From positions 1-17,428 of the IMG/VR virus record IMGVR_UViG_2657244986_000007: a stretch of 17,428 nt of DNA. One strand, written 5' to 3'. The stretch comes from a virus (taxonomy: Duplodnaviria > Heunggongvirae > Uroviricota > Caudoviricetes). Within the stretch, counting starts at the first letter, position 1. Every line of letters begins with the position of its first letter. Positions 97-15,938 of the stretch are shown one piece after another. The notes beneath the pieces are model-generated. The model ran no database searches. It saw only the letters and a list, made by a program, of their open reading frames with translations, and was not told the DNA's origin. The position numbers and the translations under genes were made by a program.

Positions 97-569
97 ACAT
101 CAATCTCTCTGACCGTTCCGCCCGCTTCTTTGAATTTTGCAATCAGGCTATCAGCCTTATGCTCGAACTGGCCATAACCAGCACCCGGCAGCGAAGCCCA
201 GATATTGCTGCAACGGTCGATTGCCTGACGGATATCACCGCGATCAATCATCGGTAAAGCGCCACGCTCTTTAATCTGCTGCAATGCCACAGCGTCCTGG
301 CTTTTCGGAGAGAAGTCTTTCAGGCCAAGCTGCTTACGATAGGCATCCCACCAACGGGAAAGAAGCTGGTAACGTCCGGCTGCTGTTGATTTGAGTTTTG
401 GGTTTAGCGTGACAAGTTTGCGAGGGTGATCGGAGTAATCAGTGAATAGCTCTCCGCCAACAATGACGTCATAACCATGATTTCTGGTTTTCTGACGTCC
501 GTTATCAGTCCCCTCTGACCACGCCAGCATATCGAGGAACGCCTTACGTTGATTATTGATTTCCACCAT
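93..569 (-). CDS. R: Endolysin R (lambda-type lytic transglycosylase), 158 aa
   Basis: ORF-track protein [39 protein letters not shown]... is recognised as essentially lambda R. Its start overlaps the S stop. Confidence 0.95.
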
Positions 570-876
570 CTTCTACTCCGGCTTTTTTAGCAGCGAAGCG
601 TTTGATAAGCGAACCAATCGAGTCAGTACCGATGTAGCCGATGAACACGCTCGTTATATAAGCGAGATTGCTACTTAGTCCGGCGAAGTCGAGAAGGTCA
701 CGAATGAACCAGGCGATAATGGCGCACATCGTTGCGTCGATTACTGTTTTTGTAAACGCACCGCCATTATATCTGCCGCGAAGGTACGCCATTGCAAACG
801 CAAGGATTGCCCCGATGCCTTGTTCCTTTGCCGCGAGAATGGCGGCTAACAGGTCATGTTTTTCTGGCATCTTCAT
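553..876 (-). CDS. S: Class I holin S with dual-start motif (Met1-Lys2-Met3)
   Basis: Protein [32 protein letters not shown]... is recognised as lambda S. The MKM start is the known S107/S105 dual-start arrangement. Confidence 0.95.
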
Positions 877-4075: not shown

Positions 4076-4215
4076 ACGTCCTCCTTTTCCTGCGGTAGTG
4101 GTAACACCCCTGTTGGTGTTCTTTCACATCGGAGACACCATCGATTCCAGTAAGGTTGCCCGGGTCGAAAGCGATCGTCTTCCTTTCGCTCTCCACATCG
4201 ATAACAGTGCTTCAT
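4042..4215 (-). CDS. ninD: Small Cys-rich protein, probable NinD (57 aa)
   Basis: [34 protein letters not shown].... The ATG overlaps the methyltransferase stop (ATGA). Size and position match lambda ninD; the sequence was not verified from memory. Confidence 0.55.
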
Positions 4216-4802
4216 GCGATCACCATTTTGCATGGTTTAATCGCCATGCCGGTAGCCAGTTCAAAATCGGAGTCGCACTGATTGCCCCACATATCCCACC
4301 CGGTCACTTTGTCGCGGCTAAATAACTCACAGCGCGGCACGTCGCCAAGCAACTTAGCTAACATGTCTCTTACGATCGGTGGTTTTGCACTGTGCTCCAT
4401 TCTCGGTGCGGTAAAGTGCTGGCATATTGAAGCGTCCATTCTCTCAGGTAACCGCCCTCGAACGGCAAACAAGCAATCCTCGCTATTTGCCCGGGTCATA
4501 TGCCCCATTCCGATCGCACTGTTGCCTTTGTGCTTATTGGTTTTGTGCCAAGTAAAGCCTTTCATAGTCATCAACCTGAATCCCCACGCCTCAATTACCT
4601 TTAGCGCTTCGGCTGGCTGTGTCGGCACCCACCACATCGCTAACAAGCAAGATTCTGGATCCGCTAAATCCCATACTGGCAGTCGGCAAATGTCCTGAAC
4701 ATTCATAACATCGTATTTATGTCCAGCACCGCGATTGCCATCGTTGGCTTTGTCGCGATATTGCCAAGGCGGATCTGCGTAAATAAGTCGGTATTTGTTC
4801 AT
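4212..4802 (-). CDS. DNA N6-adenine methyltransferase, MT-A70 family, 196 aa
   Basis: N-terminal motif YADPPW (DPPW catalytic motif) and overall MT-A70-like layout. Occupies the position of lambda ninC, coupled to the ninB stop. Confidence 0.8.
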
Positions 4803-5239
4803 TCAGTTTTATCTCCCCATCTCGCTTTCCACTCCAGAGCCAGTCGCGCTTCGTCTGACCATTTAACGCCACGTTCTGTACCGAATGCCTGTATAAGCTC
4901 TAATAGCTCCGCAAATTCGCCTACACGCATCCTGCTGGTTGACTGGCCTATTACCACAAAGCCATTCCCGGCAAGGTTAGGAACAACGTCCTGCTGCTTT
5001 AATGCTGCGGTAAACACACACTTCCAGCTTTCTGCATCCAGCCAGCGACCATGCCATTCAACCTGACGAGAGACGTCACCAAGGCAAGCCCAAAGCTTTC
5101 GGTTTTGGTCTAAGCTGCGGTTGCGTTCCTGAATGGTTACTACGATTGGTTTGGTTGGGTCTGGAAGGATTTGCTGGATAGCTTGAATGGCGTTCTGCTG
5201 ATGGATGGGGCTTCTTAGTTCAAACGTTAGTTTCCTCAT
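4799..5239 (-). CDS. ninB: NinB recombination protein, 146 aa
   Basis: Protein MRKLTFELRSPIHQQNAIQAIQQILPDPTKPIVVTIQERNRSLDQNRKLWACLGDV... is recognised as lambda NinB. Confidence 0.9.
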   Translation of the reverse strand: MRKLTFELRSPIHQQNAIQAIQQILPDPTKPIVVTIQERNRSLDQNRKLWACLGDVSRQVEWHGRWLDAESWKCVFTAALKQQDVVPNLAGNGFVVIGQSTSRMRVGEFAELLELIQAFGTERGVKWSDEARLALEWKARWGDKTE

Positions 5240-5474
5240 TGCTCACCTTCTGCACGCATGGATTAATTAACGCCAAAATAGCTTCTGGTTTCTCAATAAC
5301 ATCGAACCGCTCACCACTTGCCATTCTTACAATCGTAATCCCGGCCTCAAATAGGGTTTCGATGTTGTCAGAGTTAACGTACAAGGGCTCATATGCACTT
5401 CTGGTGCTTTCTATCACGCCTGTGCTTGGTGGCTGATAGATGCTGCATTGCATGGTTAATTTTATAAATGGCAT
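5220..5474 (-). CDS. Hypothetical protein, 84 aa
   Basis: ORF with a strong Shine-Dalgarno (GGAG 7 nt before the ATG), in the ren-equivalent position between the helicase and ninB. Confidence 0.6.
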   Translation of the reverse strand: MPFIKLTMQCSIYQPPSTGVIESTRSAYEPLYVNSDNIETLFEAGITIVRMASGERFDVIEKPEAILALINPCVQKVSNEETNV

Positions 5475-5478
5475 ATAC

Positions 5479-5742
5479 TCACTCCTTCACTTTGATTCCA
5501 GCGGCGCGGATAGCCTCTACATCGCTTTCGTATTGCGATTCTGCACCTGAGTCATAGCCAATGTGATAATCACCGGGAAGTGGGCCTTTCTTTGGCTTTT
5601 GCAGCTCAATCTCGATAGCTGCTCGCGATGCCTGCCACGCTTGCCAATACATCTCAACTATATTGGCGTATATTTTATTTTTAGGATCACATCCGGTGTA
5701 ATTTTCAAACCATTCTTCAAACTGCTTTCTTGATTCGTCCAT
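5479..5742 (-). CDS. Hypothetical protein, 87 aa
   Basis: ORF MDESRKQFEEWFENYTGCDPKNKIY... with a GAGGG Shine-Dalgarno upstream. Confidence 0.6.
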   Translation of the reverse strand: MDESRKQFEEWFENYTGCDPKNKIYANIVEMYWQAWQASRAAIEIELQKPKKGPLPGDYHIGYDSGAESQYESDVEAIRAAGIKVKE

Positions 5743-5759
5743 CGATACTTACCCTCAGT

Positions 5760-5966
5760 TCAACTCACAAAACGCCACGCCATTTTTGCTACAGCGACAG
5801 GCATAACACCGATAATCACCCACAGGAAAATGCTACCGAAAAGCACACCCACCAGGTCTTTACCTTCGCCTACCAACCGGACAAAACTGCTGGCAACAAC
5901 AATGAACGTCGCCACCATCCACATAGCACCGAGAATCCTCAATGCAGAGAAAATTAACTCAGCCAC
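5760..5966 (-). CDS. Small hydrophobic protein with two predicted transmembrane segments, 68 aa, GTG start
   Basis: (M)AELIFSALRILGAMWMVATFIVVASSFVRLVGEGKDLVGVLFGSIFLWVIIGVMPVAVAKMAWRFVS. GGAGG lies 7-8 nt upstream of the GTG. Confidence 0.5.
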   Translation of the reverse strand: MAELIFSALRILGAMWMVATFIVVASSFVRLVGEGKDLVGVLFGSIFLWVIIGVMPVAVAKMAWRFVS

Positions 5967-5981
5967 GATTCACCCTCCCCC

Positions 5982-6013
5982 AAATAAAAAGGCCTGCGAT
6001 TACCAGCAGGCCT
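5982..6013 (-). terminator. tR2-like intrinsic terminator between the replication and nin modules
   Basis: Perfect inverted repeat AGGCCTGC-N8-GCAGGCCT (5990-6013) followed on the minus strand by TTTTTATTT. Confidence 0.7.
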
Positions 6014-6038
6014 GTTATTAGCTCAGTAATGTAGATGG

Positions 6039-7415
6039 TCATACGTCCGCTCCTTGTGCATATCGTCTGCCACGTGCAGCGGGTGCATTTGATGTTGTGC
6101 AAATCTGTCTGGCTTCATCCTGGTCACATGCAACAAAGTGTCCGTTGCAGAACCGCTGGTAAACCGTACCAAGCGAGCCAAAACGGTTTTTTGTCACAAT
6201 GATTTCAGCAAATGGTGCGGCGCTACTGTTCTCGTCATATACCGCTTCCCGATAGAGCATGATGATTGAGTCTGCGTCCTGTTCAATGCTTCCTGAATCA
6301 CGCAAATCTGCGTTTGTCGGGCGTTTGTTTGGTCGCTTCTCAACATCGCGCGAAAGCTGACTCAGGGAGATAACAGGCGTTTTCAGGTCTTTCGCCATCG
6401 CCTTCAGGCTTCCGGAGATGTGAGCAATTGCGAGGTCGTTGCGGTCTGCTTTCGGCTTCTCAATCAGGCCAAGATAATCCGCCATGATGAGTGACAGGTT
6501 TGGATTTTCCTGTTTGTGCCGTTCTGCGATTGAGCGTATTTCTTCGACCGATAACCGCGAGGCATCGACTACCCATACATCCAAATCTGCAAGCTGACTC
6601 ATGCCGTTAGCAACGCGCGCCCAGCCTTCGTCATCCATCGATGCAGGATTTCGCAGCACGCTAACCGACATCCTCCCGGCGTTGGCAATACTTCGCTCTG
6701 CAATCTGCAATGCGCTCATTTCCATCGAGAAAATCAACACTCCGCGCCGGACGTCAGAACCAGGAATAACGCGGCTTGCAACGCCTTCGGCAATCTTCAG
6801 CGCCAGTTCGGTTTTACCCATACCAGGACGAGCGGCGATAATCACCAGGTCTTCTGCGTTCATCCCTCCGGTGATGGCGTCAAGTTCGTCGATTCCGGTC
6901 TTCAGGGTATCTGACTCTTCTCCGTTCCTCAGACGCCTGTCAAGCGTGTCAGTGTAGTCAGTGATGATTTCCCCTAACCGTACAGGTTTAACCTCGTCAC
7001 GGGGCTTTCTGATGGCTGAAAGACGCTTTACAAGTTCATCCATCGCCTGACTCGATGCGTCGATGGTTCCGCTTTGGATTGGTTCACGCATTTCATCCAT
7101 GATTTCCAGCACCAGACGGCGGTGATAGTTATCCGCGACCATTCCGGCATATCCCTTCAGGTTTGCGGCACTCGGGCAGTTTTTGCTGGTCATCAGGATT
7201 GACGTGAAATGCTCCTCTCCGCACGCCTCGGCAACCATCAGCGCATCGATTAGGTTTCTGTTTCTCGCCTGCTTGCGAATAACCTCGAAGGCTTTCCGGT
7301 AGAGCGGAATTGAAAACGCTTCCGGCTCTAGCGTTGCCAGAACGTCGCTGGCAGTTGGTGTTAATCCACCAATCAGCAGGCCACCGATAACGCTCGCTTC
7401 GATATCCTGTTTCAT
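6039..7415 (-). CDS. Replicative DNA helicase, DnaB family, 458 aa
   Basis: Walker A ARPGMGKT and DnaB-like N- and C-terminal regions. Its ATG overlaps the O stop (ATGA). Confidence 0.9.
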
Positions 7416-8384: not shown

Positions 8385-8459
8385 TACTCCTGTGGATTGA
8401 TCCAGTCTTTCTACATCAGGCCTCGAAGAATTCGCCGTTCTTCGGGGCTTTTTCTTTTG
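8385..8459 (+). ncRNA. oop: oop-like antisense RNA overlapping the 3' end of cII, ending at an intrinsic terminator
   Basis: Plus-strand hairpin CCTCGAAGAA-TTCGCCG-TTCTTCGGGG (8421-8447) followed by CTTTTTCTTTTG, inside the last codons of cII, as for lambda oop. The 5' end and promoter were not located. Confidence 0.5.
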
Positions 8460-8697
8460 TCAGGTAATTGGCAAGCCGCTTAGTCAGCTCAGCCATTTCA
8501 TCGTCTTCGATTCCGTATTCCAGAACAGCCAGCATCATGCTTACCTGCGAGAAGAAACCATTCTTCCATCGGCTTACCTGATATTCAGGAACCCCCATCG
8601 CTCGAGCGAATGTCTTCTGCCCCATCAGTGCCAGTTTGTTCAGCAAGGCTGACTCGATGCGAGCCGCTTTCTTGCTTTTAGTTGCAATAGTACCCAT
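8416..8697 (-). CDS. cII: CII transcriptional activator homolog, 93 aa
   Basis: ...ARIESALLNKLALMGQKTFARAMGVPEYQVSRWKNGFFSQVSMMLAVLEYGIEDDEMAELTKRLA... resembles lambda CII. Confidence 0.9.
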   Translation of the reverse strand: MGTIATKSKKAARIESALLNKLALMGQKTFARAMGVPEYQVSRWKNGFFSQVSMMLAVLEYGIEDDEMAELTKRLANYLTKEKAPKNGEFFEA

Positions 8698-8773: not shown

Positions 8774-8805
8774 GCCCTTTTTCAGGGCGGGGATGTGTAA
8801 GAGCG
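8774..8805 (-). promoter_or_regulatory. nutR (boxA plus boxB hairpin)
   Basis: Minus strand reads CGCTCTTACACATCCCCGCCCTGAAAAAGGGC: boxA CGCTCTTACACA and the boxB stem-loop GCCCTGAAAAAGGGC, as in lambda nutR. Confidence 0.85.
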
Positions 8806-10328: not shown

Positions 10329-10359
10329 AGGCTCTTAAAAATTTAGCCCTGAAGAAGGG
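10329..10359 (+). promoter_or_regulatory. nutL (boxA plus boxB hairpin)
   Basis: GGCTCTTAAAAATTTAGCCCTGAAGAAGGGC: boxA-like GCTCTTAAA and the boxB stem-loop GCCCTGAAGAAGGGC. Confidence 0.8.
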
Positions 10360-10470
10360 CAGCATTCAAAGCAGAAAGCTTTGAGTAGCGCGAAATGCAG
10401 CTGCAAGGCAGCAACCGTGGAGATAAGCATCACGGCGCGTTACTCAAAGCTAACTGACAGGAGAATCCAG

Positions 10471-11368
<898 letters not shown>

Positions 11369-14069: not shown

Positions 14070-14618
14070 ATGAATCACTTGATGGTTGACCTTGAAACAA
14101 TGGGCAACGGGCCATACGCGCCAGTTATTTCTATTGGGGCGGTATTCTTTGACCCGAATACCGGAGAAACAGGAGAAGAGTTCTCGGTAAATATCTCGCT
14201 TGAATCATCAATGCGATATCGAGCGCGTCCTGACGCTTCAACGATTTTATGGTGGCTGGAACAGAGTGAAGAAGCCAGAAAATCGCTAACCAGCAACACT
14301 CAGGAGCTTTCAACGGCTCTTTCATGGTTATCTGAATTCATCATAAAGAACGCTAACCACAAATTCGTTCAGGTTTGGGGGAATGGAGCATCATTTGACT
14401 GCGTTATTCTCCGAAACAGTTATTCGCTGACAGGGCAGCCAGTTCCGTGGCAGTGGTGGAATGACCGCGACGTAAGAACAATCGTCGAACTTGGGAAGGT
14501 AATAGGATTCGACCCTAAGCGAGATATGCCATTCAAAGGAACTCGCCACAACGCGCTTGATGATGCCATTCACCAAGCCAAATACGTTTCAGCGATCTGG
14601 AAAAAGTTAGCTAAATAA
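14070..14618 (+). CDS. 3'-5' exonuclease, DEDD (DnaQ-like) family, 182 aa
   Basis: Exo I motif MVDLETMG and Exo III motif H-NALDDA; size and layout fit DEDDh exonucleases. Confidence 0.8.
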   Translation: MNHLMVDLETMGNGPYAPVISIGAVFFDPNTGETGEEFSVNISLESSMRYRARPDASTILWWLEQSEEARKSLTSNTQELSTALSWLSEFIIKNANHKFVQVWGNGASFDCVILRNSYSLTGQPVPWQWWNDRDVRTIVELGKVIGFDPKRDMPFKGTRHNALDDAIHQAKYVSAIWKKLAK

Positions 14619-14941: not shown

Positions 14942-15109
14942 ATGAGAGGACTTGCATACAATCCCGGCATTCTTCCGGCAGAAATGATTATTCGCCAACG
15001 CGTAAAGCCAATGCCATCGAGAGAGGAATTGCTTAAGAGAAAGAGTTTCGGTTCTGTTAATGACAACAAATATCTGAATGCGATGTTGCGCAAAGGAGGC
15101 AACCGGTGA
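14942..15109 (+). CDS. Hypothetical small protein, 55 aa
   Basis: [55 protein letters not shown], with GAGGAA upstream. The track ORF 14789..15109 is probably an extension. Confidence 0.45.
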
Positions 15110-15189
15110 CTGGACATGCAGCGATCCTCGACATGTGCTGTGGCAGCCGCATGTTCTGGTTAGATAAGAATGACGAACGGGCGAGATAA
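15106..15189 (+). pseudogene. 27-codon ORF with a strong RBS, possibly a truncated methyltransferase N-terminus (gene remnant)
   Basis: AGGAGG lies 5 nt before a GTG that overlaps the preceding stop (GTGA). Peptide (M)[26 protein letters not shown]; ILDMCCGS resembles SAM-binding motif I. Stops in all frames follow. Confidence 0.3.
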
Positions 15190-15239
15190 GCGATCGGTTA
15201 AGTGCTATAGTAATGCGCTTTTGTATTTATGGAGTGAAT

Positions 15240-15938
15240 ATGAAAAATATCCTACTGGCATCATTGTTAGTGGCATCGCCGGGTGCATTTGCAGCCAGCT
15301 TTGACTGCCAAAAGGCTTCGACAGCAATCGAACATAAAATCTGCGATAACGAACGTCTGTCAAAATTAGACGAACAGCTTAGCTCTGCCTATTCTAGTGC
15401 CCTCAAAGAAAACCCAGAGAACGCAGACACCATAAAAATGGTTCAACGTCAGTGGGTAAATATGCGTGGAAAACTCACTGATAATAAGGCTCTGGAGCTG
15501 GCTTATCTTATCCAAATTAATGGCCTCAAAGGTTTGGGGAGTTCAGTCAGCGTAACAGCGGCCAATGAGATACCCACGTCGACGCAGAAACATTCTGAAG
15601 AGCAGGAAGAAACAAGTAAGGCAGAAGTTAAGTCGGTCAAGAACGGCAATAAGCTAACCTTAGAGTCATTCCGAGCTAAATATGTAGAAGTAGATGGTGA
15701 GTATTACAGCACGACATCCATTCCTAGAGGCAGTTCGTTCTTGTTCACTTGCGCCAGTCGTATTGCTGATGACCAAGTGAATGTTTGGAAGAAACATGCA
15801 GCCAAAGAGGGCAAAATCGACCTATTCTTTGAGGTTGAGAATCACTTACACACTGCTATGTTGAACGCCAATTTCCAGAAGTTGAATTCAGACCCTGCCA
15901 AAAGAGGTATTTGTAATCTGATTAACGCAGTGCCGTAA
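15240..15938 (+). CDS. Secreted protein with an N-terminal LprI-like (DUF1311, lysozyme-inhibitor-like) domain, 232 aa
   Basis: Signal peptide MKNILLASLLVASPGAFA, then FDCQKASTAIEHKICDNERLSKLDEQLSSAYSSALKE...QRQWVNMRG, the hallmark DUF1311 pattern. AT-rich gene. The track start at 15213 is an extension. Confidence 0.75.
   Translation: MKNILLASLLVASPGAFAASFDCQKASTAIEHKICDNERLSKLDEQLSSAYSSALKENPENADTIKMVQRQWVNMRGKLTDNKALELAYLIQINGLKGLGSSVSVTAANEIPTSTQKHSEEQEETSKAEVKSVKNGNKLTLESFRAKYVEVDGEYYSTTSIPRGSSFLFTCASRIADDQVNVWKKHAAKEGKIDLFFEVENHLHTAMLNANFQKLNSDPAKRGICNLINAVP

Follow-up and report, generated by a model that had tools for sequence, protein, structure and literature searches.

Small phage proteins of the inner membrane are known to form one class of exclusion factors, and the exclusion genes of temperate phages are normally expressed from the prophage. 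T4 Imm and HK97 gp15 are small membrane proteins that block DNA entry. S21 of phage 21 is a class II holin, or pinholin, of 68-71 aa with two transmembrane (TM) segments and both ends in the cytoplasm. The type I toxins Hok, TisB and Ldr are small hydrophobic peptides with one TM helix found on mobile elements. The 68-aa protein described here, encoded in the early region of a lambdoid prophage, has its size class and a predicted inner-membrane hairpin in common with T4 Imm and HK97 gp15, its length and two TM helices in common with the class II holins, and its small size, hydrophobicity and location on a mobile element in common with the type I toxins. However, it had no sequence or family match to T4 Imm or HK97 gp15, and its predicted context is lytic-only and not prophage-expressed. 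Unlike the type I toxins, it has two predicted TM helices, and its gene was found without a promoter of its own, an antisense RNA signal or an Rfam family.

The family phrog_1165, with the RefSeq protein WP_016042226.1, is known from phages HK75, HK629 and HK630 and from the orf69/70 region of Stx2-converting phage 86; protein and post-tR2 position are equal to those found here, and the annotation alone differs. NinA of P22, HK620 and lambda (phrog_5907) is, like the 68-aa protein, hydrophobic, and the two genes are adjacent, belong to the same tR2 module and are translationally chained, but NinA has 27 codons that span the tR2 hairpin in another frame. In a reporter study of lambda tR2, the maximal termination efficiency was set at 0.9, the NinA initiation site was active and "not weak", and translation of NinA reduced termination at tR2 by only about 10% (PMC4824070). 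ATGA-linked gene chains in nin regions have long been known (Kröger and Hobom 1982, as cited in PMC8022706 and PMC4824070).

Organization of the Early Operon

The window (the whole stretch of 17,428 nt analysed here) is a lambdoid prophage whose minus strand is read leftward, starting at cro. The gene order on this strand was cro–nutR–cII–O–helicase–NinA/tR2–68-aa gene–PF26207 gene–FlbD-like ORF–NinB–MT-A70 methylase–NinX–NinG–NinH–phosphatase–Q–S holin, and cI, nutL and N were located on the strand opposite to the 68-aa gene. The coordinates of the features are listed in Table 1.

Table 1. Location of the 68-aa gene, its expression signals and other features of the window.
Feature	Position	Strand	Evidence or remarks
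68-aa CDS, predicted two-TM helical hairpin, phrog_1165 member	5760..5966	minus	GTG at 5966-5964, TGA at 5762-5760; ORF list, phrog_1165 match, identical HK proteins, AlphaFold2 (AF2), pN/pS
Shine-Dalgarno GGGGGAGGG	5973..5981	minus	6-nt spacer TGAATC, then GTG
tR2 intrinsic terminator	5982..6013	minus	Terminator scan, fold, identity with lambda tR2; stem AGGCCTGC/GCAGGCCT at 6013-6006/5997-5990, U-tract TTTTATTT at 5989-5982
NinA ORF, 27 aa	5959..6042	minus	phrog_5907 match; annotated as NinA in HK620 and HK630
DnaB-like replicative helicase	6039..7415	minus	Upstream of NinA/tR2; Pfam DnaB_C 1.3e-77, DnaB 4e-13
cII	8697..8416	minus	
nutR	8774..8805	minus	boxA CGCTCTTA at 8805-8798, boxB GCCCTGAAAAAGGGC at 8788-8774; upstream of the 68-aa gene in the same operon
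Lambda-type N antiterminator ORF	10381..10794	plus	Pfam N36 1.5e-24; nutL boxB at 10346-10360
87-aa cytoplasmic protein, phrog_343/PF26207 (Phage_phiTE_015)	5479..5742	minus	17 nt downstream of the 68-aa gene
84-aa FlbD-like ORF	5220-5474	minus	Pfam FlbD (flagellar/swarming), E=9.7e-06, just over the gathering score
MT-A70-type DNA methyltransferase	4212-4802	minus	nin region
Rv2179c-like 3'-5' exoribonuclease-domain protein	14070-14618	plus	E=2.9e-73
S-family holin	553-876		Part of the same window

The boxA and boxB of nutR matched the searched lambda consensus patterns with zero mismatches, and the boxB pattern was found three times against 0.07 matches expected by chance. No promoter-like site was detected on either strand between positions 5000 and 6600, Rfam and tRNA scans of the window returned no match, and no terminator was adjacent to the stop of the 68-aa gene. 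Because the gene lacks a promoter and a terminator of its own and is located in the pR operon behind tR2, established lambda biology predicts no transcription in the lysogen and transcription only by N-modified polymerase that has passed tR2; the gene should thus be expressed only in lytic growth. Some expression in the prophage could result from about 10% readthrough of tR2 or from a promoter type that escaped detection. Assignment of the gene as a moron was rejected, since no promoter was found, the upstream terminator is the operon's own and no terminator is adjacent downstream.

The surroundings of the gene varied among phages. It was located behind DnaB-type helicases in 72 loci and behind ren-like genes and two other short ORFs in 41; in a single case, it came after a replication module of primase type followed by an HNH_3/AP2-domain gene. 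The phages carrying it comprise lambda-like siphoviruses, P22/HK620-like podoviruses and Stx phages. With replication modules and phage types so varied, the gene appears to be independent of any particular phage partner, and its absence from lambda and Sp5, together with occasional pseudogenes, indicates that it is dispensable. The 68-aa gene was also considered as a functional replacement of ren; this was rejected because at least 21 loci contain both it and a ren-like gene.

The tR2 Junction and the NinA ORF

The tR2 hairpin consists of a perfect 8-bp stem and an 8-nt loop, followed by the U-tract. The hairpin and its flanks were base-for-base identical to lambda tR2 and also to the annotated tR2 of HK620, and hairpin and U-tract are placed between the replication genes and the nin genes, as in a tR2 module. 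An alignment with lambda showed that the identical tR2 and Shine-Dalgarno site lead straight into ninB there, with no 68-aa ORF. Comparison of the sequences shows tR2 and the Shine-Dalgarno site as a seemingly fixed junction, behind which the first gene appears to be swappable between ninB, the two-TM gene and the PF26207 gene.

The NinA ORF reads through tR2. Its ATG overlaps the stop codon of the helicase gene (ATGA), and its TGA overlaps the GTG of the 68-aa gene (GTGGCTGA). The 68-aa ORF itself was considered as NinA and rejected, since it is located downstream of the 27-codon NinA and in another frame; the label "NinA protein" on the HK630 BLAST match belongs to the neighbouring ORF and not to the 68-aa gene.

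The NinA mini-ORF is hydrophobic. A conserved Shine-Dalgarno of its own is embedded in the 3' end of the replication gene before it (helicase, ren or others). The overlaps at both of its ends form a coupling chain across an intrinsic terminator, as is known for lambda (PMC4824070). Four Salmonella enterica proteins of 93-94 aa (P0121, P0123, P0125 and P0128) are in-frame fusions of NinA with the 68-aa protein; the P0125 fusion was found on 47 contigs. These fusions are consistent with a change of 1 nt in the G-run downstream of the tR2 U-tract; their product is predicted to be a three-helix membrane protein. They could reflect homopolymer slippage, sequencing error or natural variation.

The junction was also seen in altered form. 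On the viral contig IMGVR_UViG_2871727361_000001 (3913-4000), a diverged NinA-like ORF (MHQAYTTEKLTGLLIIAALIFWRW...) precedes a distant two-TM homologue, and the hairpin has diverged to GGGCTGC-N8-GCGGCCC plus a T-run. The arrangement of NinA, terminator and two-TM gene therefore extends beyond the near-identical module of E. coli and Salmonella. In prophage Sp5 of E. coli O157:H7 Sakai (14976-15594 of the locus), an extra 89-aa ORF, ECs_1191, is inserted between P and NinA/tR2, tR2 is followed directly by the phrog_343-like gene ECs_1192, and the 68-aa gene is absent.

Start Site of the 68-aa Gene

Pairing of GGGGGAGGG with the anti-Shine-Dalgarno sequence gave -11.8 kcal/mol, the minimum on the entire minus strand of the window. 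The corresponding values for the internal ATG codons M15 and M17 of the ORF were -6.9 and -4.0, respectively, and HK620-type homologues have no Met at the matching positions. The gene is annotated with only 52 codons in HK630, mEp235 and others, and is unannotated in HK620, H-19B and some Stx phage records. Because the M15 and M17 sites are weak and HK620-type homologues have no Met there, the 52-codon annotation starts too late, and, judged from these sites, several phage records place the start of the gene 16 codons downstream of its predicted position. The 30 nt upstream of the gene were near-invariant across 126 loci. Among 130 close copies, the start codon was GTG in 125 and ATG in 5, with its position unchanged.

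The initial annotation had described a very hydrophobic 68-aa ORF with two helices and a GTG start, preceded by a strong ribosome-binding site, placed directly after a perfect-stem tR2-like terminator and having no counterpart in lambda. All of these points were borne out on the minus strand, down to the identity of the hairpin with lambda tR2.

Conservation and Selection

The protein matched phrog_1165 with E=3.5e-37, residues 1-68 aligning to positions 1-68 of the 68-position profile, and the same profile was matched by all 20 diverse homologues searched. A 100% identical protein is encoded by phages HK75, HK629 and HK630. Identity was 95.5% to many Stx2a-converting phages, 56% to HK620 and H-19B, 56% to mEp213 (residues 3-68) and 44% to P22-like Salmonella phages. 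WP_016042226.1 is listed as a 68-aa "hypothetical protein", and PGAP annotates the 68-aa version. Near-identical DNA was present in 530 of 5426 complete E. coli genomes, and among cultured phages the family was limited to 107 lambdoid phage records of E. coli and Salmonella.

A total of 143 loci were collected. Among the 130 close copies, 127 were intact with exactly 68 codons; the exceptions were H-19B (stop codon), Salmonella phage 146851_sal5 (frameshift) and a third locus, L092 (disrupted 5' part). The H-19B copy (AF034975.3, 1501-1704 of the locus), unannotated in the 1998 record, carries TGA in frame at codon 15 in place of the TGG of HK620, and reads stop-Trp against Gly-Trp at alignment residues 15-16. 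In the 146851_sal5 copy (1501-1815 of the locus), a 1-nt deletion in an A-run results in fusion with the next ORF. The lesions in these two phages are either real pseudogenes or sequencing errors.

Over 61 unique coding sequences, pN/pS was 0.50 in the annotated frame and 0.72 and 1.10 in the other two frames. The value for codons 2-16 (0.57) was similar to that for codons 17-68 (0.48), and dN/dS between divergent types was 0.24-0.42. These ratios point to moderate purifying selection (0.5) on the 68-aa frame and on that frame only.

A profile search of 1.84 billion representative proteins returned 26 matches only, which include relatives of 60-66 aa with 27-35% identity in other Enterobacterales prophages. 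The distant relatives retain K/R10, W16, G35, D37-P38, W49, G53, P56, K61 and W64, and are encoded on twelve viral contigs and two contigs of Izhakiella capsodis; the search of genome contigs, for which a narrower alignment was used, returned Izhakiella capsodis only. In all 12 distant viral contigs inspected, the gene is located between the replication genes and NinB, often with its start sharing bases with the stop codon of the replication gene before it (ATGA/GTGA).

The window contains 67 ORFs of at least 60 aa, and the length of the 68-aa ORF is by itself unremarkable. It is conservation and selection that place this ORF beyond chance, as read from the sequence comparisons. We regard it as a genuine, conserved gene on this evidence, of a family already catalogued as phrog_1165; it is real but an ordinary conserved hypothetical gene. 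Pfam, NCBIfam and PADLOC scans found nothing significant for the 68-aa protein or 20 homologues, no PADLOC defence-system HMM family matched the protein at E<=1, and a literature search found no report on it. About 1 in 10 complete E. coli genomes, many Stx2a-converting phages and the model phages HK022, HK620 and HK75 carry the gene. Two corrections follow for existing records, namely the start codon in several phage records and the separation of the 68-aa gene from "NinA", a name that BLAST output can wrongly suggest for it.

Predicted Fold and Topology

The 68-aa protein had a GRAVY of 1.49, the highest value among the window's 102 stop-free segments with a length of at least 60 aa, with Kyte-Doolittle peaks of 2.15 (residues 11-29) and 2.49 (residues 41-59). 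The AF2 model, built from an 18-sequence alignment, consists of two helices, residues 2-33 and 38-67, with a mean pLDDT of 91.6. Across the family, the termini carry on average 2.8 K+R and 0.5 D+E, and the 8-residue turn carries 1.5 K+R and is net neutral. By the positive-inside rule, this modest charge bias slightly favours a cytoplasmic location of both termini. The C-terminal tail comprises 8 residues, and no soluble part is longer than 10 residues.

Foldseek comparison of the predicted hairpin with viral and PDB structures gave no match at E<=0.001, as is expected since the protein is a bare helical hairpin, and a PDB sequence profile search with the 68-aa protein matched nothing. Assignment as a holin was rejected, because the gene belongs to the early operon, outside the lysis cassette, the window has a separate S-family holin, and the protein has no charged C-terminal tail and no dual-start motif. 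Holin families gave no significant Pfam match to the 68-aa family, the best being E=0.6 for one distant member.

Proposed Role of the 68-aa Protein and Alternative Explanations

We have high confidence in the gene, its predicted fold and its expression context. As the first gene past tR2 in the rightward early (pR) operon, the 68-aa gene would be silent in the lysogen. After infection or induction, N-modified RNA polymerase, with nutR located upstream, would pass tR2 and transcribe it. Translation would start at the GTG via the strong tR2-proximal Shine-Dalgarno and may be aided by termination-reinitiation from NinA, whose stop overlaps the GTG. The product would be an inner-membrane hairpin with TM1 at about residues 11-29, an 8-residue periplasmic turn containing the conserved G35-x-D37-P38, and TM2 at about residues 38-60. 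During lytic growth, it may act on a conserved component of the host envelope through contacts between helices within the membrane, and the outcome may be host takeover, exclusion of a competing phage or counter-defence. An intramembrane, host-directed action is suggested because the protein has almost no soluble part and because the replication modules, immunity regions and virion types that accompany the gene are unrelated. We infer this functional part from context, since the protein has no homology to a characterised family and no informative fold match, and the membrane-target mechanism is put forward as tentative. Concerning the statement as a whole, that the gene encodes a dispensable delayed-early inner-membrane hairpin acting on a host envelope component, we lean slightly towards its being correct. 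Should a phenotype be found, the lambdoid early programme would gain a new small membrane effector.

Several other explanations were weighed against this one. Superinfection exclusion, in which the inner-membrane hairpin would stop DNA entry of competing phages, agrees with the fit of the predicted hairpin to the known class of small inner-membrane exclusion proteins, and the presence of the gene in phages with different virions makes a host-side target plausible. However, with no promoter and a position behind tR2 in the CI-repressed pR operon, exclusion would operate in lytic growth only, and PADLOC and Pfam gave no match; an injection block of this kind is considered unlikely. A membrane toxin or growth inhibitor, whether type I toxin-like or Kil-like, would depolarise or damage the host membrane, and the protein is indeed small and very hydrophobic. 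It is also predicted to have two TM helices with few polar residues, which does not favour a toxin; neither do the lack of antisense or promoter signals on either strand and of an Rfam match, the placing of the gene within an operon, with 17 nt between it and its downstream neighbour, its intact state in about 10% of complete E. coli genomes and the separate S-type holin in the window. Such toxicity appears improbable. Classification as a type I toxin proper was rejected, as neither a promoter (0 promoter-like sites in 5000-6600) nor an antisense RNA (no Rfam match in the window) was found. The initial annotation had pointed to toxins, cell-division inhibitors and exclusion factors as frequent roles of such proteins. 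None of these gained support, and the context (no promoter, no Rfam RNA, a CI-repressed and N-dependent pR operon, and no PADLOC, Pfam or NCBIfam match) speaks against their usual prophage-expressed versions; we do not think a prophage-expressed toxin or moron role likely.

The position beside the replication genes could instead mean a replication-linked role or shared descent. A membrane factor, co-translated with the helicase or loader, that anchors phage replication to the membrane or arranges it there would account for a gene that is always directly behind replication genes, overlaps the preceding replication gene by ATGA/GTGA in distant relatives and is here chained to the helicase via NinA. 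Nevertheless, the upstream replication proteins are of unrelated types, soluble parts of at most 10 residues are too small for obvious binding of DNA or the replisome, lambda, P22 and Sp5 replicate without the 68-aa gene, and ATGA chaining is general in nin regions (PMC8022706), all of which makes a replication factor very unlikely. The hairpin could also form a two-gene module with the downstream PF26207 protein (Phage_phiTE_015/phrog_343), which it would anchor or regulate. The PF26207 gene was the immediate neighbour in 7 of 8 non-redundant contexts of the exact 68-aa protein and immediately next in 36 of 72 close viral loci (conversely, 41 of 69), and was within about 0.7 kb in most divergent loci. 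But the hairpin occurs alone in HK620 and HK630 and PF26207 alone in Sp5, both are common nin-region cassettes whose adjacency may be shared descent, and the fold of the PF26207 protein offers no functional clue, and we consider it rather improbable that the two act as one module. There remains the reading as no gene at all, which the initial annotation had allowed for as a hydrophobic chance frame in a GC-skewed region. A short ORF behind a terminator, with a GTG start, no Pfam family and no annotation in HK620, H-19B and some Stx phage records, might suggest this. It is contradicted by purifying selection specific to this frame and not seen in the other two, by constant length and start, by the strongest Shine-Dalgarno of the window, by homologues at 27-35% identity and by the confident predicted fold. 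The conservation in related prophages that the initial annotation had named as a check was confirmed by phrog_1165, the HK phages, the E. coli genomes and the distant relatives. As far as sequence evidence goes, a chance frame is refuted, and its probability is negligible.

Beyond the preferred reading of a lytic-phase membrane hairpin acting on the host envelope, it is conceivable but doubtful that the hairpin founds a new class of lytic-phase, membrane-embedded host-manipulation factors, perhaps together with the NinA peptide, with which it is found joined in some Salmonella prophages, and/or the PF26207 protein. Possible roles of such a class would be inhibition of membrane-acting Abi effectors, lytic-phase exclusion, or modulation of a host membrane protease or transporter.

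Neighbouring Genes of the Window

The PF26207 protein was strongly mosaic: N-terminal MDESRKQFEEWF, central WQAWQASRAAIEIE and C-terminal IRAAGIKVKE were conserved, and the inserts were variable. Its AF2 model had a pLDDT of 83.7, and a fold search with this model gave no informative match. The FlbD-like ORF that follows also matched phrog_8458 ("flagellar protein", moron category), an unusual family for a nin region, and no FlbD-like ORF was found in the other loci collected. Further downstream, the MT-A70-type methyltransferase gene overlaps the stop of NinB. In the leftward operon, the gene for the Rv2179c-like protein adjoins those of a Rad52-type recombinase and an SSB.
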